Position numbers and translations under genes: made by a program | Assembly: GCA_039818205.1 (NCBI GenBank) | Contig: JBCBUK010000003.1 | Coordinates: 192,001 to 256,000 of the forward strand | Source of the DNA: Verrucomicrobiota bacterium | GTDB lineage: Bacteria > Verrucomicrobiota > Verrucomicrobiia > Opitutales > Cerasicoccaceae | Reading direction: 5' to 3' | Length of the DNA stretch: 64,000 bases | In this document: positions 1,872 to 64,000 of the stretch, piece after piece | How the letters are laid out: every line of letters starts with the position of its first letter | Position numbering within the stretch: the first letter of the stretch is position 1 | The notes under the pieces: model-generated | What the model was told of the DNA's origin: nothing | Databases searched by the model: none | What the model saw: only the letters and a program-made list of their open reading frames with translations

Positions 1872-3134
1872 CTAGCTGACCTGGTATGGTGGCAGTTCCT
1901 TGGATACGCGTGATGGCTTGAAGGCCATGTATTTGGGCGTGCCGTTTTCGTAAGGAACTTCGACCTCTCCTTGGATCAATGGGTTCGCATACTTGAAGAA
2001 CTGGAAGTTGATGCTTACGCCGTCCTCGTTGATCCATTGGGTTGGGAATGGCTTCACGTTGTTGGCAACGTCTTCCAAATTGGCGAGGCCGGTTTCGCAG
2101 CCGTAGAAGTCGCTATCGGTGCGGATCAAGGTGATCATCTTGTCCGTTTCACCGTCGATCGCGGCCTTAACTGCGGCTTGTCCGGCCAAGAACGCTTCGT
2201 CGTTGTCGGTTTGTGAAGAGCAATGAGCCGCGGCGCGCTGGGCAATACCGAGCTTGCAGGAACGTGCTTTGACGCCTGCCAAATTTTGCTCTACGAGATC
2301 GCGCAAGTGTTCGCCGACGCCGCCGAGAGCATTGTGGCCAAAGTCATCTTGAGACTGCGCTGCTGCAATATAGTTACCGTCCTGGTCGGTCAGGCCTTCG
2401 CCCACAACAACCATGCAATATTTGGACTTACGGAGAACTTCTTGGACGCGGGCAACGAATACTTGTGGGTCAAAGCGAACCTCTGGCATCAAAACCAGAT
2501 GAGGTGGATCGTCGACCTCGTTACGGCGTTTGGCGAGGCTGGCACCAGCGGTGATCCATCCCGCATTGCGACCCATAACTTCTACGATCGAAACGAAATC
2601 GTGGCGACCCATGGACTCATTGTCCAAAGCGATTTCCTTCACCGTGGTCGCAATATATTTGATTACGCTTCCGTAGCCAGGGCAGTGGTCGGTGATGGGT
2701 AGATCGTTGTCGACTGTCTTCGGAATTCCGATCACGCGGAGGCCGTAGCCCTTCTCGCGAGCTGCTTCGGAAATCTTGTTTGCGGTGTCCTGAGAATCAT
2801 TGCCGCCGATGTAGAAAAAGTAGCGAATATTGTGAGCCTGAAACACCTGGAGTACCCGCTCATAATCCTCACCGCTACTCATTTGGTAGCGGCAGGAACC
2901 CAAGGACGAGCCGGGCGTATACCGGAGGCCGCGAATGGCCTGTTGAGACTCTTCTGCCAAGTCAATCAGCTCTTCATTTAGGATGCCTTGAATGCCATTG
3001 AGGCCGCCATAAATTTCTTCGATGCACCCGTGGTTGAGTGCTTCGGTAACGACACCAGCTAAGCTGGCGTTAATGACTGCGGTCGGTCCGCCCGATTGGG
3101 CGACGAGGACATTGCCGTTTAATTCTTCTGACAT
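1872..3134 (-). CDS. 6-phosphofructokinase family protein, probably PPi-dependent
   Basis: AQSGGPTAVIN, YIGGNDSQDT (GGND with Asp, PPi-type), IPKTVDNDL, EVMGRNAGW; start placed at MSEELN (ATG 3134). Confidence 0.9.
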   Translation of the reverse strand: MSEELNGNVLVAQSGGPTAVINASLAGVVTEALNHGCIEEIYGGLNGIQGILNEELIDLAEESQQAIRGLRYTPGSSLGSCRYQMSSGEDYERVLQVFQAHNIRYFFYIGGNDSQDTANKISEAAREKGYGLRVIGIPKTVDNDLPITDHCPGYGSVIKYIATTVKEIALDNESMGRHDFVSIVEVMGRNAGWITAGASLAKRRNEVDDPPHLVLMPEVRFDPQVFVARVQEVLRKSKYCMVVVGEGLTDQDGNYIAAAQSQDDFGHNALGGVGEHLRDLVEQNLAGVKARSCKLGIAQRAAAHCSSQTDNDEAFLAGQAAVKAAIDGETDKMITLIRTDSDFYGCETGLANLEDVANNVKPFPTQWINEDGVSINFQFFKYANPLIQGEVEVPYENGTPKYMAFKPSRVSKELPPYQVS

Positions 3135-3298
3135 AGCTATTTTGAGATTGGGACCTAAGCAAAATTGATCGGGTCTGGAGCAAAACCGCAGACTCTGCCG
3201 ATGCCGTATTTTCAATGCAACTTAAAAAGCGTCACAAGTCATTAGCGTGTCCGGTGGGTTTTTCTGAATCCCACAGTTGAGTCACAATAATCAACTAA

Positions 3299-4906
3299 CT
3301 ATGAACGGCTTGTACGCTCGATATGGGCATCTTCGATCGAGGTTAGCAGCCGATTCGCCAGCCAGATGACCCGTTCGCAACCCCCAAGGAGGTGGAGGGC
3401 AGCTGCTTGCCGTTCCCGATCGCTATTGTCGGGCGGCTCGAGAAAGTTTTCGCGCAGACGGGCGAGGGCGCCACCGCCGTCAGCGGTGATCTGTACGGCT
3501 AGTGTCAGGTCGTCTTGATCCAGGGTTATGATCGCGTCGAGCACCGTTAACCAGGCGGCCTCTAGTCCTTCGAGGGTTCGATGGGCGAGTGAGTCACTCC
3601 CAAGCGCTTGCTGCTTCGCGCGGGGTAGCACTTGAAAGAATTCTCGCTCGAGGGCACAGAGCAGATCATGCCGCTCCAGCGCTCGGGCAAGAGCACCTGC
3701 AGTTTCCCCGCTTTGACGCTGACTCATCAACGAGTGGAGTACCTGTGATACCTCGTCGGCAACGGAATCAAATGCCCGGTGGATTCCAATGGCGGCCGAT
3801 GGGGCGTTGCCTTCCGGGCCTGCGGGCAAGCGAAAGTATCGCGAGAGGCGATCCGCTAAGCGTCGGTGTTCCTGTTCAATCAAATCTAGGCATGCCGACG
3901 GGTCCTCTTCACACCGTGGGTAGAGGTATTTGGGGCGATCCTCCGTTTCATGGGCGTCGGGTGGGTACTGTCTGGCCAAAACGCCAGCCAGTTTTCGCTC
4001 GAAGGGGAGTGTCGCGGAGCTGGCTACCACGCACCAAATCAAGTTGGCGAGGGCGAGGATTTGGGCCAGCGGAAGCCCCGTTTTGTTTAAGAGCGCGATC
4101 ACCAGGGGAATGCCACCCCAGATCTCAATAAAGAAAAGTGGCACGAGCACGGCCGTTCCAATCCAGCCGTAGTAGACTTGAAACATCGCCATTTGCTTGG
4201 CGGTGCCTTTTAGTCGAAGGGTTAATAGATGGGTGATGAGGCTAGCTCCAAGATTGACGCCGTAGATGGCGATGATTGCCTCGTCTTCACCAAGCATATC
4301 GGCGCGAGCTAGGACGATCGTTACGAGAACGACCGCATTTCCGGATTGGGCCAAAAGGGTGAGGAGAGTGCCGACTAAGAATACTGCAATGTATTGACCA
4401 TGAGACATTTCCAGTAATCGACGGAACCAATCATACTGCTGCAGATGCTCGCCGGTTTCCTGCATCAAAAACAGTCCGTAGAACAATAGGCCCATGCCGA
4501 AAATGAACCCAACGGCATGTCGCCAATTGCGGGGTCGCTGGAAGGCATACAGGATACCGGCCAAGCCGACAACGTAGGCTGTAAAGACATCCAGAGGCAG
4601 CGTCAGGAAGAAGATCAGGACACAGGTGCCGGGGTTTGACCAATTCAATGCGGACAGTGCGCGGCGGGCGGGCAGCAGACCCGTATTGACCAAGCTAATG
4701 GTCAAATAGGTCACGGCAGACGCGGTTTGTGCGATCGCTCCGACGCAAAACCCCCACCAGGCGGCCTTCCAAACACTATCGGTCAGCCCGGCGAAAATAG
4801 CGCGCAAGCGGCGCCCGGCGATTGACCTTAGGTGGCGATCAAGCAGAGCTGCTCCAACAAAGAAAAGGCCAAGGCCCGCCAACATGTAGCCGAGCAATGT
4901 TGTCAT
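3299..4906 (-). CDS. Na+/Pi-cotransporter family membrane protein with helical (PhoU-like) C-terminus
   Basis: Hydrophobic N-terminal two thirds with repeated QTASA / QSGNA and WSNPGT / GVNLGA motifs; soluble helical C-terminus. Confidence 0.8.
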   Translation of the reverse strand: MTTLLGYMLAGLGLFFVGAALLDRHLRSIAGRRLRAIFAGLTDSVWKAAWWGFCVGAIAQTASAVTYLTISLVNTGLLPARRALSALNWSNPGTCVLIFFLTLPLDVFTAYVVGLAGILYAFQRPRNWRHAVGFIFGMGLLFYGLFLMQETGEHLQQYDWFRRLLEMSHGQYIAVFLVGTLLTLLAQSGNAVVLVTIVLARADMLGEDEAIIAIYGVNLGASLITHLLTLRLKGTAKQMAMFQVYYGWIGTAVLVPLFFIEIWGGIPLVIALLNKTGLPLAQILALANLIWCVVASSATLPFERKLAGVLARQYPPDAHETEDRPKYLYPRCEEDPSACLDLIEQEHRRLADRLSRYFRLPAGPEGNAPSAAIGIHRAFDSVADEVSQVLHSLMSQRQSGETAGALARALERHDLLCALEREFFQVLPRAKQQALGSDSLAHRTLEGLEAAWLTVLDAIITLDQDDLTLAVQITADGGGALARLRENFLEPPDNSDRERQAAALHLLGGCERVIWLANRLLTSIEDAHIERTSRS

Positions 4907-56954: not shown

Positions 56955-57359
56955 ATGATCCAAAATTACCGAAGTAGACATTCTCTTCCTGTTGGTATTC
57001 GTGAGGCCGTTAATTACCGCTTATATCCTGTATTTAACAACGGTTCGACCGAGCTCGATTTCGAGTTTGATCACGGATTACTTCTAGGGAGAATACACTG
57101 GATTCAGTCACTATCTGATTGGTTCCATTTAATTGATGAAGATGATCGAGAACACTATTTGCTTAATCTAGAACAAGCGTATGAGGCAGATTACTTAATT
57201 TCAGCATATAGGGTTCATATTAATAAAAATTCAGAGTATTGGATAATTGATTATGCCGAATGCGGCATGGGCGATTCAGATTACATACAGGGAACCATTC
57301 TTTTGGCCGAAAGCATCGACGATGTGGCCAGGGTTATGAAGAAGTTCGTTGGTAAGTAG
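56955..57359 (+). CDS. Hypothetical protein, PAS-like fold
   Basis: WFHLIDEDDREHY...YRVHINKNSEYWIID...IQGT resembles PAS_3/PAC; AT-rich ORF. Confidence 0.55.
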   Translation: MIQNYRSRHSLPVGIREAVNYRLYPVFNNGSTELDFEFDHGLLLGRIHWIQSLSDWFHLIDEDDREHYLLNLEQAYEADYLISAYRVHINKNSEYWIIDYAECGMGDSDYIQGTILLAESIDDVARVMKKFVGK

Positions 57360-57452: not shown

Positions 57453-60400
57453 TTATTGAAAATCTGCAGTGGATAACTGGAGTGCTTGATTGGTCATTTT
57501 TGCCAAGTCACGGTGTAAACTATCCCAGTCACTGTTGATATTCGATTCTCGAATGGATTCGATCAGTGACACGATTGAATCGTTTGGAAACATGCGAGCC
57601 GCTGGTGTCATGTCGTGGAGAATGTCGCGGATTTGATCCTGATCCTGTGTTTTTGACGCTGCTTCAATTCGATCGCAGAATTCGACTAGTGTGGCGCGCA
57701 GTTCGTCCATCAACTCACGGAGCTTATCCGGGTCTCCTTCGGCCAGGTAGGCGAGTGCGTTCCAAGCGTCATTTTTAGGTGCCGAAGGCTTAGGTGGTTT
57801 AGTGGATTGTTTGCGTCCGGTTTCGACCGCGGTCAGAAGCTCGGTGGGCGAGAACGGTTTGGGGACAAAACCGGTGACGCCGGCTTGGACGATGCGGGGG
57901 CGGTCGTTGTCGGCGACATAGGCGCTCATTGCGATAATTGGGCGGGCTTTGTGGGCCTCGATGGCTCGAATGTCGCGGGCGAGCTCGACTCCGTTTTTGT
58001 CCGGGAGGTTGACATCGACAAGAATGAAGTCCCACTCGCGATCGTTGAGACGTTCCATCGTTTCCTGGGCGGTGCCCGTCATGGTCACCGACGCACCGAC
58101 GTTTTCAAGAATACCTCGGACGACCATTTGATTGTAGGGCTCGTCCTCAACGACCAGGACAATTGAACCGCGCAGGGCTTCTCCATTGGGATTCTCCTGA
58201 TGGGGCTGACTCTCGCTGAGTGGCGCCAAGGTTTGCATGGGGACCTGGACGCGAAACTGAGTTCCGCTTGAATCGGTTTTCTCGAGACTCAACTTGCCAC
58301 CCAGGAGCTTGCTCAGGCGATCTGCGATGCTTAGTCCGAGGCCAATGCCCTTGGTCATCGAGGTGACATTGGAGCCCTGCTGAAACTGCTCAAATATCTT
58401 ATCCTGAGCCTCGGGTGGGATGCCTTTGCCGGTATCCTCGACGAGAAAATCCAACCGAATGCGGTCGTTGCGGTCAGTGGCTTCCCAAAATGCATGGACA
58501 CTTACGGATCCGTCATCGGTAAACTTGATCGCATTGGAGGTCAGGTTGAAGAGAATCTGTTTGAGTTTACCGGAGTCGCCATGGAGCGGCGGGCAAGAGT
58601 CGAAGTGGCGAATCACTTCCAATCTCAGGCCTTTGTCGGTCGCCAATCGACTATGGAGTGAGTTCAACTCGCCGAGGACATTCTCCAGCTCAAATGATCC
58701 TTCGATAATTTTGACCTGTCCATTCTCGATCGCCGCGAAGTCGAGCATGCCGTCCAGTAGGATCTTCAACTGCTCGGCGGTCGAAAGCAGGTGGTTCATC
58801 CGATTGTCCGGCTTCTTCTTACGCTCATCAATCATCAGGTGAGCCAGCCCAACGATTCCGTTCATCGGATTGCGGATCTCGTGGCTTACGTGCGCGAGGA
58901 AGCGATTCTTTGATGTGTTGGCCTGCGCAAGGCGGATGTTCATACGTTCGAGTTCAATGGTGCGACTGCGAACGGCATCTTCCAATGCGACGTTGGCGGT
59001 GCGCAGGCGTCGGGTGCGCCACTGGACAAAGGTAAATACGAGGGCGATGCCGATAGCCGTGAAGACCGCGTAGGCGAGGGCAGTCCGATACCATGGTGGT
59101 AAGACGGTGAACGGTATCGCCGCCACAAGCTTGGTCGGTTGGCCATCGATAATGCCGCGCACCTCAAACTGATAATCGCCTTCCCGAATGTTGGTGTATT
59201 CCTTGAACGGGTTTGAGTTCGGCTTACTCCAATTGCTTTCAAAGCCCACTAGGCGAGTCTGGTACTCCATGGATTTCGTGCCGTAATAGGGTAACGAAAA
59301 TTCAAAGGCGGCTTGCTGCAATGGATAGCTTATTTTTTCCATGGACTCGGCTCGTTGCTCCTGCGTTTGTCCTTCGTCATCAACGAAAATCTCGTTGAAG
59401 AATTTTGCTTCCGAAATGATCGGTCGCCGGTTGAGGTCGTTCGGTACCTTGCTAAGATCTTCCCGAATGATTCCACCGCTGCCACCAAACCACGCCGTGT
59501 TATTATCTTGCTCGACAAAGATACAGTGTAGCGGTGATAGGACATTTACGCCGTCGGAAGCGACTTCGGTGTAGGTCGGCGCTCCATTCTCGGCCGACCT
59601 ATCGATCTTCGCCAATTGGTTTTTCTCTAAGTCCGCGTCCGGGTAAGCAATCCAAACAGCTCGGTCATTGTTAAAGAAATTGGTCGAGTAAGGGTCTTTG
59701 CCGAGATCGCTTGGCGAGTCGGGGACTTGTCTCCATTCGAGGTCAGAATGACTTTGATAGAATACGCCAGCATTGGTTATCGCCAGTAGTACCCCGTCGA
59801 GGTTGGTGGTATATGCCCAGATGAATGCTTCCCCGTTCTCGGGGTTGTTGACGGGCTCGTAAGTTGGGGTGAGCTCAAGGTCCTCAATGTCGCGTGCCAT
59901 GGCACGCTGTAAGCCTGCATCAACCGACCCAAAGTAATAGTAGCTGTCATAGCCATAATCAATGGTCCACATGTTTCCGGGAAATGGCTTCTCGGCAATG
60001 ATCTCAATGGTGTCATCCACCCACTGGCCGATCATAAAGTTTTTGTAGGAGGTGATGTAGAGCAGGTCTGCTGTCTCAGAAAAGCTAACGGTGCTGATGT
60101 CTTGGTTGTACTCGAAGAGCTTTACCAATCCATCTCCCGATGTTAGATCGATTCCGTCTGCTCGGCAGAATAGGACACCTTTGTCGGTTCGCTCCATCGT
60201 CCATCCAGGAGAGCGGTTTTCTCCCAAACGATCCCATGAATGCGGAAGTAACTGTTCTTCTCGTGGGCGCAGCTCATAAATTCCAGTGAACCCACCAGCA
60301 TACTTGCGCCCTTCAAACTCATTGATGTCTAAGATGTATCCCGAATCGAGACCTTGATCATTGTTGAACTTAGTCCACGACTTCGGGTTTGTTATGCAGC

Positions 60401-61388
60401 TAATTCCGCTTTCGTGGCATGCCCAGATGTTCCCATCTTTGTCCTCAAACAAATCGAAAACGATATTGCTAAGCAGTCCTTCATTCTCCGTCCATCGAGT
60501 GACGAATTTACCGTCGCGGTCGAAAATGAGGATTCCTAAACTGTGGATCGACGAAGCAAAAAGACCATCTTCAAGTTCAATTGTTTTATATATTAACTGC
60601 TCTTTTGCAGCAGGTGTTATGTCGGTTTTAAAAGCCTCAAGTTTGTTGTCTTCAAACTTGTAAAAACCATTCCGAAAGGTGCTAAGAATTTCTACGCCTT
60701 CATTTGGTTTCGAAATGAAATTGATGGCATCATCGCCAATCTCTTCTTTGTCTATGATGACCGGAAACCCTTTTTCGATTATTTGCCGTATACCAACGCC
60801 GCGTTGGCTAATCAGTGGGCCTGCCTGAGAGTTGTGCAGGGTAATGCGTCGCGCAGTGGGAAAGGGGAAGACTTCGATTTCACCATCGGTATATAGCACC
60901 AGGTGTTCTTCGGCAACAAACGCAATAATTTCGCCGATCGGTACTACCTGCCATATCGTTCCTAGTTGCAGGTCGGGATTTGGGAGTTCAGGGATTAAGG
61001 AGTGATAGTCACTGATCTTTCCGTTTGAGATATCGAAGTATCCTAACTCGTTATTCCCTCCAATCCATATTCGATCGCCATTGCCAATGTATAGGGTCCT
61101 GACGGTCGAGCCCGTCCTGTGTTGTCTCCAGGTCACGCCATCAAACTCTAACAAGCCATCGTTGTTAGCAAAGAACAGACGGCCATCGTCGCTTTGAGCG
61201 GCTTGCCAGTTGCGTCCGTCCGAACGAGTCCTCTCTGCTGGGAAGGATTGTATTGTGGGAGCTCCAAGGTCGCGCGCAAAGCACGAACCGGCAATGGTCT
61301 GCCAGATGATAAGCAGGCCCCAAAATATGGGTGTATGCTGTCCTTTTAAAAAAGTCACCGTCTTGCTACTTTGATCGCGTAGTCTCAT
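57453..61388 (-). CDS. Hybrid sensor histidine kinase: beta-propeller + Y_Y_Y periplasmic sensor, TM, HisKA, HATPase, receiver, Hpt-like
   Basis: Repeats FEDKDGNIW / GLLEFDG; YQTRLVGFESNWS...YTNIREGDYQFEV; PPWY; SHEIRNPMNGI; NLTSNAIKFT; VEDTGKGI; GIGLGL; LVVEDE, ILVDVNLPD, VPKP; C-terminal ILHDM. Confidence 0.93.
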   Translation of the reverse strand: MRLRDQSSKTVTFLKGQHTPIFWGLLIIWQTIAGSCFARDLGAPTIQSFPAERTRSDGRNWQAAQSDDGRLFFANNDGLLEFDGVTWRQHRTGSTVRTLYIGNGDRIWIGGNNELGYFDISNGKISDYHSLIPELPNPDLQLGTIWQVVPIGEIIAFVAEEHLVLYTDGEIEVFPFPTARRITLHNSQAGPLISQRGVGIRQIIEKGFPVIIDKEEIGDDAINFISKPNEGVEILSTFRNGFYKFEDNKLEAFKTDITPAAKEQLIYKTIELEDGLFASSIHSLGILIFDRDGKFVTRWTENEGLLSNIVFDLFEDKDGNIWACHESGISCITNPKSWTKFNNDQGLDSGYILDINEFEGRKYAGGFTGIYELRPREEQLLPHSWDRLGENRSPGWTMERTDKGVLFCRADGIDLTSGDGLVKLFEYNQDISTVSFSETADLLYITSYKNFMIGQWVDDTIEIIAEKPFPGNMWTIDYGYDSYYYFGSVDAGLQRAMARDIEDLELTPTYEPVNNPENGEAFIWAYTTNLDGVLLAITNAGVFYQSHSDLEWRQVPDSPSDLGKDPYSTNFFNNDRAVWIAYPDADLEKNQLAKIDRSAENGAPTYTEVASDGVNVLSPLHCIFVEQDNNTAWFGGSGGIIREDLSKVPNDLNRRPIISEAKFFNEIFVDDEGQTQEQRAESMEKISYPLQQAAFEFSLPYYGTKSMEYQTRLVGFESNWSKPNSNPFKEYTNIREGDYQFEVRGIIDGQPTKLVAAIPFTVLPPWYRTALAYAVFTAIGIALVFTFVQWRTRRLRTANVALEDAVRSRTIELERMNIRLAQANTSKNRFLAHVSHEIRNPMNGIVGLAHLMIDERKKKPDNRMNHLLSTAEQLKILLDGMLDFAAIENGQVKIIEGSFELENVLGELNSLHSRLATDKGLRLEVIRHFDSCPPLHGDSGKLKQILFNLTSNAIKFTDDGSVSVHAFWEATDRNDRIRLDFLVEDTGKGIPPEAQDKIFEQFQQGSNVTSMTKGIGLGLSIADRLSKLLGGKLSLEKTDSSGTQFRVQVPMQTLAPLSESQPHQENPNGEALRGSIVLVVEDEPYNQMVVRGILENVGASVTMTGTAQETMERLNDREWDFILVDVNLPDKNGVELARDIRAIEAHKARPIIAMSAYVADNDRPRIVQAGVTGFVPKPFSPTELLTAVETGRKQSTKPPKPSAPKNDAWNALAYLAEGDPDKLRELMDELRATLVEFCDRIEAASKTQDQDQIRDILHDMTPAARMFPNDSIVSLIESIRESNINSDWDSLHRDLAKMTNQALQLSTADFQ

Positions 61389-61432
61389 TGAAGATTACAC
61401 TAATCAACATCCAACACACAAAAGCATCAATA

Positions 61433-61552
61433 ATGAAAAAAATACTCACTGCGTTCTTCGAAACCGTAAAATACAATCTCGGTTATCGTTCCAGCGCTGA
61501 TCTACCCGCAGTAGAAACCAAGGCATGGCCTTCGTTCCCTTGCGGATTCTAA
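61433..61552 (+). CDS. Putative RiPP precursor peptide, 39 aa
   Basis: MKKILTAFFETVKYNLGYRSSADLPAVETKAWPSFPCGF from ATG 61433, directly upstream of a YcaO-like gene; Ser/Cys in the C-terminal segment. Confidence 0.7.
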   Translation: MKKILTAFFETVKYNLGYRSSADLPAVETKAWPSFPCGF

Positions 61553-61589
61553 GACCGGGTTAAGCAAACGTCATTACTGCTGCAAAGCG

Positions 61590-61622
61590 GTGCCGCTGCC
61601 CCTTCAGACCGGGCAGCGGCAC
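61590..61622 (+). promoter_or_regulatory. Strong intercistronic stem-loop between peptide and YcaO genes
   Basis: GTGCCGCTGCCC (61590-61601), 9-nt loop, GGGCAGCGGCAC (61611-61622); perfect 12-bp stem with no long U-tract. Confidence 0.75.
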
Positions 61623-61649
61623 TTAAATAAACAAAACAAATAAATCCTA

Positions 61650-62570
61650 ATGTTAAAATCCATGAATCTGGCTCCATTGAAGTTTCGCGATGTGTTGGCA
61701 AGCGATGGTGGCCCAATCCGTACGGTTGATGTTGGTACGGAAACGATTCTGGGCCGGGACCAATATTCGGCCCATGCCTATTTATGTGAGGACCTTTACG
61801 TTAAGCGACAGACGTCTGCCGTAATCACCAAGATGCCAGACGGCGCGGGAACCGCATCGGACCCAAACACCGCAAAGTTTCGAGCAATCTCTGAAGCTCT
61901 GGAGCGCTGGGCGTTCGGGCAATGCTCTATCATTGAAAGCTATAAGAAGGAGCTCGGATTCGACTATGATCCGACGACCAATGGGATGGGAGCCTTCCCC
62001 GGGCTATTTGATACGCCAGCGCGCCTTGCCGCCGAGCGCGAGGCGATTGAGCGTCATTGCTTGGTTCTTTGGTGGGAAGGCTTTCTCGATGTAACGAGTA
62101 TCGCGGACCCATTTCCCGGTGTTCGGGGAATCCAGATCGAAAATCCCTTTAGCGATGATATTGTCGTGTTGCTTTGGCAGTTTGTTGACGATCGTTTTTA
62201 TATCTATGGTTTCGGTCTGGGAACGACGATGGACGATGCCTGCTGGCGGGCGGGCGTTGAAATGTATCGCACCGGTAAGATTACTCGATCGCACTATGCG
62301 AAAAACGATTCAATCGACGAGGCCTACTTCAGTGAGTTTGAACACCTCTTCGAGAAGCGAATCCTTTTCTATTCACGGCCCGATGGTTTTATTCAACTGC
62401 TTGAGCGTTTGGAAACACGACCGATAAAGCGGTATCCTGGCTCGCCGGACATTATTGTGGATCGCAAGGTTACCGGCCCCTGGGATCGTTTTGTAACGGT
62501 GTGGCGCGTTGTCTATCGACAGCCTAGTCGTGAATTCGCCAGTGACCGCGCCGACTATTTCTTTTGGTGA
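61650..62570 (+). CDS. Compact stand-alone YcaO-like protein
   Basis: YcaO ATP/Mg motifs in order: DGAG...AISEALER, TTNGMGA, EREAIERH, WRAGVE; 306 aa. Confidence 0.8.
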   Translation: MLKSMNLAPLKFRDVLASDGGPIRTVDVGTETILGRDQYSAHAYLCEDLYVKRQTSAVITKMPDGAGTASDPNTAKFRAISEALERWAFGQCSIIESYKKELGFDYDPTTNGMGAFPGLFDTPARLAAEREAIERHCLVLWWEGFLDVTSIADPFPGVRGIQIENPFSDDIVVLLWQFVDDRFYIYGFGLGTTMDDACWRAGVEMYRTGKITRSHYAKNDSIDEAYFSEFEHLFEKRILFYSRPDGFIQLLERLETRPIKRYPGSPDIIVDRKVTGPWDRFVTVWRVVYRQPSREFASDRADYFFW

Positions 62571-62618: not shown

Positions 62619-64000
62619 TTAGAACTGCTTGCTTATGGCACCATAGACAAAGCGGTTCTGAATAGAGTATAGGGAAGTGTCGTAGCCGTCGGCGAAAGCG
62701 CCGGCGGCGAACGGCGGCGATTCATCGAAGACATTGTCAACGCCGACCGTAACAGTTGTGCCATCTAGAATCTCGCTTTCGGTGTTCTTGAACTCGTAGC
62801 TAGCCACCAGGTTTACCTTCACGTACTCCTCAACCGTACGCGGGACTCCTCCAAGGGTGAAGCTGCTGTCATCATCATAGGATCCAATGTATTGAACGGT
62901 AGCTCCTATGGACGCATCGTATACAAATAGGTAGACGCTGGCCAAGCCCTTCCAGCGAGGGATCGCACCTGGGCTCAAATTGTTTGAACGTTTATCGACG
63001 AATCCGCCAGCAAATGAGAGTTCTCCAACACCGGGAACTTCGGCATCATAGCTTAGCACTTGGTTGACTCCGATCGACGCCAAGGTTCGGATGTTTTCCG
63101 TGATCGAGTAGTCATATTCAATGCGGTAGTCCAAGCCTTGGGTTGTGATTCGCGAGGCGTTGAAATAACGGGAGTTCACAAAGATGACGGGTCCCATGGG
63201 GCCAGCGCGCACGACGTCGTTGGGATTGTTTTGGTCCAAGGTAAACTGTGCACCATTGGCAATCGCGTCATCAACGTTCAGGTAGTAGTAGTCCACTCGG
63301 AAGGCGAGGCCTTCAACCGGCTCGGGTTCCCAGATGACACTAGCCGAAACGCTTTGTGAGGTTTCCGGATCGAGTGACGGGTTTCCACGTAGGAAGGTCG
63401 GGATAGGGGTTCCCGGTGCCGTTGCTCCCGTTGGGTCGACGAGGATGGGAAAGTCAAAGGTTTGGCTGGCATAGGATTCATACAAGGTCGGCGCACGAAA
63501 GCCGGTGCTGTACGAAGCGCGGAGTGTGACCGTTTCTACCGGCTTTAAGCGAAGCGCAACCTTCCATGAAAGATTGCTGTAACCGTTTGGCGCAGATAGA
63601 CCGGTGACGGGGTCATTGCCGTTGTCATCAAATGTTTCGAACCGCAGCCCGAGACTGAGATCCAAGTTCTGTGCGAGGGGAACATCGTGGTGGGGAGCGA
63701 GGATCGGCACGTATGTTTCACCAAAGAAGGCGAAGACATTGCGCTGCCCACTAAAGGGTTGATTGAAGCCTGCGGCTCCGAGGTTCTGGCCGGTTGACCA
63801 AAGCACATCGGGTGTGTTGTCGATGGACTCGTAACGGTATTCGAAACCAATGGCACCATCTAATGCGCCTGCCGGTAGGTCTATGATCTTACCCGACACT
63901 TTGGCGTCATAGGTAAGCATGTTTTCGAATAGATCATTGTGTGGCTCAACGGCTGCTGTTTGAAGTGCCGTGTAGTTGTTAAAGCTGATTCCCGCATTGT
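62619..64000 (-). CDS. TonB-dependent receptor, C-terminal barrel (5' part outside window)
   Basis: LRASYSTGFRAPTL, GNPSLDPETS, GVDNVFD..PP, C-terminal YGAISKQF. Confidence 0.93.
   Translation of the reverse strand, partial: NAGISFNNYTALQTAAVEPHNDLFENMLTYDAKVSGKIIDLPAGALDGAIGFEYRYESIDNTPDVLWSTGQNLGAAGFNQPFSGQRNVFAFFGETYVPILAPHHDVPLAQNLDLSLGLRFETFDDNGNDPVTGLSAPNGYSNLSWKVALRLKPVETVTLRASYSTGFRAPTLYESYASQTFDFPILVDPTGATAPGTPIPTFLRGNPSLDPETSQSVSASVIWEPEPVEGLAFRVDYYYLNVDDAIANGAQFTLDQNNPNDVVRAGPMGPVIFVNSRYFNASRITTQGLDYRIEYDYSITENIRTLASIGVNQVLSYDAEVPGVGELSFAGGFVDKRSNNLSPGAIPRWKGLASVYLFVYDASIGATVQYIGSYDDDSSFTLGGVPRTVEEYVKVNLVASYEFKNTESEILDGTTVTVGVDNVFDESPPFAAGAFADGYDTSLYSIQNRFVYGAISKQF

Follow-up and report, generated by a model that had tools for sequence, protein, structure and literature searches.

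In the agr (AgrD/AgrB/AgrC/AgrA) and comQXP systems of Firmicutes, a hypervariable block that encodes the signal peptide and the sensor of its kinase is bordered by conserved flanks and defines allelic specificity groups. Signalling by modified peptides with such groups is characteristic of Gram-positive bacteria; among diderms, small diffusible molecules are, to our knowledge, thought to play the main part. In the nisin/NisRK and subtilin/SpaRK systems, a peptide that is made on ribosomes and modified after translation (RiPP) is encoded next to the two-component system by which its mature form is sensed. Here, we describe a locus in a stretch of 64,000 nucleotides from a Verrucomicrobiota bacterium of the family Cerasicoccaceae, order Opitutales (assembly GCA_039818205.1, contig JBCBUK010000003.1, positions 192,001 to 256,000), which is referred to as the window. 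In the Opitutales, a conserved four-gene module for peptide signalling appears to be formed by a small precursor peptide, a stand-alone YcaO-like enzyme of minimal size, a hybrid histidine kinase and a NarL/LuxR-type regulator. Judging from comparative sequence data, we assign a probability of roughly 0.55 to this reading, in which the peptide would be matured by the YcaO-like enzyme and recognised by its cognate kinase, as in an agr/comQXP-like 'pherotype' system in a diderm host. Both YcaO RiPPs and peptide-pheromone two-component systems are known kinds; the host and the sensor class would be unexpected. No description of such a system was found in the titles and abstract beginnings returned by literature searches.

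The elements named in a preliminary description of the locus, namely a 39-residue open reading frame (ORF), a 306-residue ORF, a divergent 1311-residue kinase ORF and a gap of 44 bp between the two divergent starts, were all reproduced in the ORF list. The organization of the locus is as follows (window positions, strand, feature, source):

57453..61388, minus: hybrid sensor histidine kinase gene, 1311 residues (ORF list and Pfam)
59094..61271, minus: sensor domain of the kinase in the periplasm (about residues 40-765); of the two halves of the 'specificity cassette' considered below, this is the one that diverges fast
61270..61503, no strand: conserved centre, comprising kinase codons 1-40, the intergenic region and peptide leader codons 1-24 (nucleotide identity to a variant contig)
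61389-61432: divergent intergenic region of 44 bp between the kinase and peptide starts
61433..61552, plus: precursor peptide gene with an ATG start, 39 residues, ending in ...WPSFPCGF (ORF list and orthologue alignment)
61433-61504, plus: peptide leader, about residues 1-24, with a conserved ..YNxG.R.. motif (identity break against the variant contig)
61505-61549, plus: variable core of the peptide, about residues 25-39, with Pro-Cys at residues 36-37
61590..61622, plus: perfect 12-bp stem-loop between the peptide and enzyme genes (inverted-repeat search and RNA folding)
61650..62570, plus: minimal YcaO-like enzyme gene, 306 residues (ORF list, AlphaFold 2 model, Foldseek and VIA-align)
62619..64000, minus: C-terminal part of a TonB-dependent receptor gene, which runs off the window end (Pfam TonB_dep_Rec_b-barrel)

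The locus is analogous to agr and comQXP in that precursor, modifying enzyme, kinase and regulator are clustered together, and in the coupled allelic divergence of peptide and sensor. It differs in several respects. The host is diderm; the sensor is not a polytopic membrane domain but a periplasmic beta-propeller/Y_Y_Y domain of about 730 residues within a hybrid kinase; and the place of AgrB or ComQ is taken by a YcaO-like enzyme that does not co-vary with the peptide. The module also has no dedicated exporter or protease.

The coupled divergence is the evidence that bears most directly on the proposed function. The peptide tail and the periplasmic sensor co-diversify, while the enzyme and the kinase core stay nearly identical. 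Among loci of the same genus, identity is 30-37% for the sensor, 58-61% for the histidine kinase (HK) core, 60-62% for the YcaO-like enzyme, 74-77% for the regulator and 64-70% for the receptor. Pairs of loci with a YcaO identity of at least 90% gave the following values (YcaO, HK core, sensor, peptide tail):

L104/L113: 95%, 98%, 97%, 92%
L148/L151: 94%, 93%, 54%, 60%
L120/L143: 90%, 90%, 60%, 52%
L140/L146: 95%, 87%, 55%, 20%
L126/L143: 90%, 91%, 40%, 20%
L120/L126: 99%, 98%, 44%, 16%

For the 179 pairs whose YcaO-like enzymes are at least 50% identical, sensor and peptide identity show a partial correlation of 0.43, given YcaO and HK core; the coefficient is descriptive and carries no p-value because the pairs are not independent. 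A DNA comparison of L120 with L126 reveals about 2.25 kb in which identity is only 41-71%, flanked on both sides by sequence of 100% identity (100-nucleotide bins). This divergent block covers exactly the part of the kinase gene that encodes the sensor, together with the intergenic region and the peptide gene. The view of the peptide as the kinase ligand gains indirect support because tail and sensor diverge together. Variable core and sensor domain would be exchanged jointly as an allelic 'specificity cassette', giving rise to pherotype-like variants. The lack of co-variation of the enzyme fits this arrangement, because the enzyme would read the conserved leader and a minimal Pro-Cys/Thr/Ser site.

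The assembly of the window itself holds a variant of the locus on a contig of 894 bp (C54, locus L087) that ends where the hairpin begins. C54 shares 97-100% nucleotide identity (50-nucleotide bins) with the centre at 61270-61503 and about 60-65% with the flanks. On the kinase side, identity drops from about position 61270, and the first 179 residues of the sensor are 64% identical; on the peptide side, 4 of the 15 core positions differ, including a Cys37 to Ser exchange (6 of 39 in the whole peptide). One marine metagenome run, which may be the sample of origin of the genome, yielded separate contigs that exactly match the window form and the C54 form, and possibly a third form. Contig depths in that run, which are not copy numbers, were 3.3-5.2 for the C54 form versus 16.6-29.8 for the window form. 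An exact scan of metagenome contigs with a 38-nucleotide stretch of the conserved centre returned no match, and no RNA data set turned up that contains C54.

A search for relatives of the enzyme identified 90 close homologues of about 300 residues, the named ones from Cerasicoccus and other Verrucomicrobiota, and a metagenome profile search returned 951 sequence clusters at E <= 0.001 and 324 at E <= 1e-30. The YcaO-like gene was present in 31 of 401 genomes sampled across the phylum, all of one order, and in 68 of 401 sampled across that order. A scan of species genomes gave 218 relatives, of which the best 80 all belong to the Opitutales; their hosts include Cerasicoccus arenae, C. frondis, C. 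maritimus, Thalassobacterium, Oleiharenicola, Lacunisphaera, Opitutus, Horticoccus, Cephaloticoccus, Lentimonas and Oceanipulchritudo. The nearest relatives of the window gene are those of the three Cerasicoccus species (60-63% identity).

The divergent kinase is a near-constant neighbour. It was found at 55 of the 56 loci with at least 4.3 kb of upstream sequence in the 80-locus set and, in agreement with the kinase adjacency proposed in the preliminary description, at all 40 of the 20-kb loci. The first 20 of these contain the kinase in 20 cases, a regulator of 210-257 residues in 11 (by clustering) and the receptor in 4, and the second 20 have a kinase-core match beside the gene in 20 cases and the regulator in 17. 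Among loci of the 80-locus set with both flanks, the NarL-type regulator is present in 40 of 45 and the TonB-dependent receptor in 5 of 45. Within the taxonomic family of the window, sensor orthologues were found only in genomes with the YcaO-like gene, and the five genomes of genus g2, from which that gene is missing, gave none. Apart from kinase and regulator, clustering revealed no neighbour family that recurs at over 6 of the 20 loci of 20 kb, and no protease, immunity gene or exporter is conserved at 20 such loci.

In the window, the receptor gene is convergent to the enzyme gene and encodes 917 residues in the full genome (L031); a response regulator of 210 residues with receiver and GerE/LuxR domains follows it just past the window end. 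The receptor adjoins the module in Cerasicoccus and related marine lineages. The unit of peptide, YcaO-like enzyme and kinase that had been described is thereby retained and corrected, with the NarL/LuxR regulator as a further member and the TonB-dependent receptor as an addition in this lineage. The comparative data support the earlier interpretation as a peptide/YcaO/kinase cassette and extend it to a candidate four-gene module with allelic peptide/sensor cassettes.

The gene content also invites comparison with RiPP systems that are not primarily defined by signalling. Bufferins are reported to be Cys-containing RiPPs modified by MNIO enzymes that carry Sec signal peptides and act in the periplasm. 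They set a precedent for RiPP precursors with a Sec-type signal, as suggested by most leaders of the present family, but their enzyme belongs to the MNIO/DUF692 type, their function is copper buffering, and they are not known to co-vary with a cognate sensor. The window peptide, in addition, has no convincing signal peptide. An ordinary RiPP product, such as an antimicrobial or metal-binding azoline/thiol peptide, might be made here while the neighbouring two-component system senses another cue. Precursor and YcaO constitute a classical RiPP pair, C-x2-4-C and Pro-Cys motifs could bind metal, a TonB-dependent receptor could import a metallophore, and bufferins are reported to be secreted Cys-modified RiPP metallophores with Sec signals. 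We nevertheless consider this account unlikely: a kinase that responds to some other cue would not be expected to alter its sensor along with the peptide tail, genes for immunity, export and proteolysis are not conserved at 20 loci of 20 kb, and the receptor is present at 5 of 45 loci.

The lantibiotic autoinduction systems are likewise similar in having a RiPP-type precursor beside a two-component system, but the present loci contain no lanthipeptide enzymes, immunity genes or ABC exporter, the kinase is of another class, and the peptides are far more variable and often multi-core.

The small ORF that the preliminary description expected upstream of homologous YcaO-like genes was found, on the same strand and directly before the gene, at 75 of the 76 Opitutales loci with at least 200 nucleotides of upstream sequence. 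Seventy were detected automatically (ATG start, at least 30 residues, end no more than 330 nucleotides from the enzyme start and a match to the family profile) and five by eye in six-frame translations, where the ORF overlaps the enzyme start, has a non-ATG start or lies at a contig edge, or was partly masked. An earlier, overlapping set gave 44 of 44 usable loci. Because the ORFs used to train the profile had been chosen by their position in related loci, the profile score is partly circular; position, strand and alignment are not. In many loci, the gap between peptide and enzyme genes is 0-25 nucleotides, which suggests one operon for both.

The peptides consist of a conserved leader and a hypervariable tail. 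Five orthologous peptides of the Cerasicoccus family have 39-40 residues, an MKK... start, the ..YNxG.R.. motif and a C-terminal pattern KA-x-P-[ST]-aromatic-P-[C/T]-[E/G]-[V/F]. An alignment across families keeps one leader Gly and a Pro followed by Cys, Thr or Ser near the C-terminus, the three residues interchanging at one aligned position. In a set of 95 distinct peptides (L053 and L092 were left out as a wrong-frame ORF had been picked, the true ORF having 39 residues), P[C/S/T] occurs within the last 15 residues of 67, compared with 27.0 +/- 4.2 (maximum 40 in 1000) when the last 30 residues of each peptide were permuted. Pro-Cys is found in 44 of the 95 (6.9 +/- 2.5 in shuffles), and Pro precedes 59 of the 124 tail cysteines. 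The adjacent precursor thus carries Cys, Ser or Thr at a candidate modified site, as azoline-forming systems do. Nine precursors contain a short core that is repeated in tandem two to four times. Examples are L080, with three copies of an 8-residue unit that ends in ..WPCE, and L022, with four copies of an 11-12-residue unit; this layout is typical of cyanobactin precursors and of eukaryotic pheromone precursors.

Most leaders of the family begin with basic residues, continue with a hydrophobic run to ..G[FL]x[RK]A and then A[ED]xxDP, and often have small residues at -3/-1. A crude signal-peptide rule (a basic n-region, 14 or more uncharged residues in a row and a 12-residue hydropathy no lower than 2.0) selects 60 of the 95 peptides. 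A lipobox Cys in the hydrophobic segment of some leaders was considered and rejected, since most members have Ala, Ser, Val or Leu there.

A hydrophobic N-terminal segment with a basic n-region in these 60 peptides, together with Cys in the tail, would also suit a periplasmic or membrane-anchored feedback modulator acting in cis on its own kinase, in the manner of MgrB on PhoQ, and tuned by YcaO modification. MgrB shares such hydrophobic segment and Cys features, no outer-membrane exporter is linked to the module, and co-variation with the sensor would be expected of any direct binder. However, the tandem cores of nine precursors imply cleavage into several short released peptides, the swapping of allelic cassettes in near-identical backgrounds is typical of social signals whereas a private loop offers no obvious driver, and a TonB-dependent receptor is linked in some lineages. 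We regard a modulator of this kind as rather improbable.

The proposal of a peptide matured by the enzyme and read by the cognate kinase, which is the simplest model for the observations as a whole, depends further on the identity of the 306-residue protein. The AlphaFold 2 model, computed from the family alignment, has a mean predicted local distance difference test (pLDDT) value of 94.3, and all 41 Foldseek matches at E <= 0.001 are YcaO enzymes. In VIA-align, 14 YcaO entries scored Z values of 9.5-16.5 with 222-278 residues aligned across the whole model, while the best unrelated entry scored 6.2; the individual values were 16.5 for McbD, 16.1 for the M. kandleri YcaO, 15.4 for LynD, 15.2 for MusD (7u58) and 12.5 for E. 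coli YcaO. Two Glu pairs, E82/E85 (..SEALER..) and E131/E134 (..EAIER..), are invariant in 46 homologues, and weak family-model matches put them at the expected motif places; they probably correspond to the Mg/ATP-binding Glu pairs of YcaO structures. A precomputed PF02624 match is present on many homologues. The YcaO label of the preliminary description is upheld by the fold and not by the profile score of the protein itself, which lies under the Pfam cut-off. The protein is barely a YcaO member by sequence and, according to the model, clearly one by structure. Its start is probably the ATG at 61662, giving 302 residues, because most homologues and the databases begin at the Met that is residue 5 of the 306-residue ORF.

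With the RiPP enzymes McbD, LynD/PatD, the stand-alone YcaOs of bottromycin and MusD, the protein shares the same fold over its whole length (Z 15-16.5), an adjacent precursor with Cys/Thr/Ser and, as in cyanobactins, tandem multi-core precursors. By contrast, its sequence similarity to them is near noise, and its length of about 300 residues, against domains of 360-440 residues, is about 60-140 residues below that of the YcaO domains of solved enzymes. It also lacks the partners of those enzymes (an E1-like/RiPP recognition element (RRE) protein, a dehydrogenase and TfuA), ends in a conserved ..DYFFW with an invariant F304, and usually faces a single modification site. MusD is, according to a review (PMC10885120), a YcaO-like enzyme able to remove C-terminal residues with ATP.

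The divergence of the enzyme and its lack of known partner proteins would also agree with a peptide that is an unmodified secreted signal or small protein, the YcaO-like protein acting on another substrate or having lost catalysis. The enzyme can be 99% identical between loci while the tail changes completely, some peptides have no Cys/Ser/Thr after Pro, and YcaO proteins can act on proteins, for example McrA or ribosomal proteins. Against this stand the abutting peptide and enzyme genes, with gaps of 0-25 nucleotides in many loci that point to a single operon, the invariance of the Glu pairs, and the enrichment and interchange of Pro-Cys/Thr/Ser at one position, as expected of a leader-guided YcaO substrate; a conserved leader followed by a variable core explains why the enzyme does not co-vary. 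We judge an unmodified peptide to be distinctly improbable.

In the proposed pathway, peptide and enzyme would be co-transcribed, with the stem-loop of this lineage allowing the peptide mRNA to exceed the enzyme mRNA. The enzyme would recognise the conserved leader and, as its fold, its Glu pairs and the peptide motif suggest, activate a backbone amide at Pro-Cys/Thr/Ser near the C-terminus. The most likely product would be an azoline; the alternative would be a MusD-like removal of the last residues. The peptide could reach the periplasm by the Sec-like signal peptide of most family members and, in the genus of the window, might be brought back in by the adjacent TonB-dependent receptor. Its variable core, which is observed to diversify together with the sensor, would bind to the periplasmic sensor of the cognate kinase, and the signal would pass on through the regulator. 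The complete scheme, that is, diderm pherotype quorum sensing or kin recognition in which the YcaO-like enzyme forms the azoline or trims the C-terminus, the propeller kinase reads the core, TonB-dependent re-import operates in some lineages, and core and sensor are swapped together between strains, is tentative and has somewhat less than an even chance of being correct in all its parts.

Several observations weigh against the peptide-signalling reading. On the side of the enzyme, the Pfam YcaO score (PF02624) is 23.2 bits versus a cut-off of 25.7 and covers residues 109-158 only, and a profile of 46 homologues retrieved McbD from the Protein Data Bank (PDB) at an insignificant E of 0.19. The Pro-rich (PxPxP) C-terminal motif needed in azoline-forming YcaOs is replaced by ..YFFW. 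TfuA (PF07812), the thioamide partner, was not found in the genome of the window, which is 99.97% complete; TfuA-independent cases of thioamide-forming YcaOs exist. No E1-like/RRE partner or dehydrogenase was linked at 20 loci of 20 kb, in which neighbours were clustered and not all scanned with Pfam, and the missing exporter belongs to the same list. On the side of the peptide, 21 of the 95 have no P[C/S/T] in the last 20 residues, at least four of them having no Cys there; some of the 21 have Pro-Cys further upstream or C-x3-C without Pro. The window peptide and those of its congeners fail the signal-peptide rule, with a best 12-residue hydropathy of 0.76-1.57 (0.76 for the window), whereas most family members reach at least 2.0. 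On the side of the loci, L108 has no recognisable small ORF before the YcaO-like gene; L108 and L116 (Opitutaceae) have a kinase-like match downstream on the same strand and not divergently upstream; and L123 contains the peptide and YcaO-like genes with no kinase within 5 kb. The locus sets were drawn from the same species collection and are overlapping and related, so that the counts are not independent. Finally, periplasmic sensors often evolve fast, and the co-divergence of sensor and tail was compared without a baseline from unrelated kinases of these genomes.

A PDB sequence search with the single 306-residue protein returned a chance match (E 1.2), and the NCBIfam SagD model matched at E 0.09. 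Pfam YcaO and TfuA searches of the genome of the window yielded nothing at E <= 0.01; the YcaO search left the module's own gene unreported because the gene is too divergent. A feature search of a protein atlas pointed to a related cluster with 137 members of 283 residues, 20% of which carry PF02624; most of its known taxa are Bdellovibrionota. The YcaO-like gene of L003 (G057:C11:455881-456777) has one in-frame TAA, and the tail of its upstream peptide has no Cys; L003 may be a decaying copy of the module. A peptide type with no Cys/Ser/Thr after Pro is shared by L106, L116 and L127.

The kinase consists of an N-terminal membrane anchor, the periplasmic beta-propeller/Y_Y_Y sensor, a second transmembrane segment, HisKA, HATPase and receiver domains and a probable Hpt domain. 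The domain assignment given earlier stands for Reg_prop, Y_Y_Y, HisKA, HATPase_c and Response_reg, all of which score over their Pfam cut-offs; the Hpt match is weak (13.9 bits versus 24.6), with His1258 invariant in 23 orthologues. A complex prediction of sensor residues 40-770 with the precursor, both entered as alignments, scored 0.02 against a mark of 0.32 and is evidence neither way. The Reg_prop/Y_Y_Y periplasmic sensor recalls the hybrid two-component sensors of Bacteroidetes polysaccharide utilization loci, which also sometimes have as a neighbour a TonB-dependent receptor through which the ligand would enter the periplasm. Unlike those sensors, the present kinase has no AraC-type output domain, is paired with a separate NarL-type regulator, and is linked to a peptide and a YcaO-like gene instead of glycan enzymes.

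The genome of the window encodes three more Reg_prop-type kinases, which are non-hybrid and have about 1010-1030 residues. The three are located at:

G000:C13:109954-111939
C29:8762-9184
C1:7218-7940

The propeller kinase on C13 was intended as the divergence baseline; it has no orthologue in five related genomes, and its best sensor matches are the module kinases.

The hairpin between the peptide and enzyme genes was confirmed as perfect, with two fully complementary arms (100%) of 12 nucleotides (61590-61601 and 61611-61622) and a loop of 9 nucleotides. The spacer at 61553-61649 folds with -33.2 kcal/mol, compared with -20.7 +/- 2.7 for shuffled sequences (z -4.6; 0 of 200 as stable). A strong stem-loop also follows the peptide gene in L003, L004, L005, L007, L051, L055, L059 and L063, several of them with a U-run behind it, and between the window and L051 the stem sequences differ and the pairing is kept. 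Stem-loops occur where the gap between peptide and enzyme genes is 40-143 nucleotides, in the lineage of the window and its marine relatives; in freshwater and soil families with gaps of 0-25 nucleotides, no hairpin was found. A promoter and terminator scan detected neither a sigma-70-like site on the plus strand nor a terminator with a U tail at the hairpin, and counts were no higher than in shuffled sequences. The hairpin is likely a partial terminator or attenuator that would raise the ratio of peptide to enzyme transcripts. Partial terminators with this effect are common in lantibiotic operons.

If the peptide-signalling reading is correct, peptide-pherotype logic would extend to the Verrucomicrobiota, which are common in sea, soil and freshwater, the beta-propeller/Y_Y_Y sensor class would gain a peptide ligand, and the enzymes would represent a new, very small YcaO branch working without known partner proteins. 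The loci supply natural matched and mismatched peptide/sensor pairs for the study of specificity, and cultured hosts exist in Cerasicoccus arenae, C. frondis, C. maritimus, Thalassobacterium and Oleiharenicola lentus.

Thalassobacterium sedimentorum has two complete modules of the type described so far. A second paralogue group of YcaO-like genes, with about 33% identity to the first, is represented by L067-L073 and L075; the paralogue at L068:9016-9993 has 326 residues and a Pfam YcaO score of 24.4 bits. The group has its own small ORF (AQA-type signal and ..SIYC.., with Tyr-Cys near the end) and its own hybrid kinase, in which the N-terminal 780 residues have no Pfam match. It also has a NarL-type regulator of its own and a single-domain receiver. 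In L123, the locus that has peptide and YcaO-like genes but no kinase nearby, a 549-residue protein with a C-terminal ABC-transporter ATPase domain is encoded just upstream on the same strand (3007-4653, plus strand); it is possibly a dedicated exporter.

On the far side of the kinase gene, the window contains one more ORF:

56955-57359, plus: ORF of 134 residues, convergent with the 3' end of the kinase gene

Its product has no match in Pfam or NCBIfam. Two Cerasicoccus genomes, L076 and L077, have the ORF in the corresponding position, with 31-38% identity.

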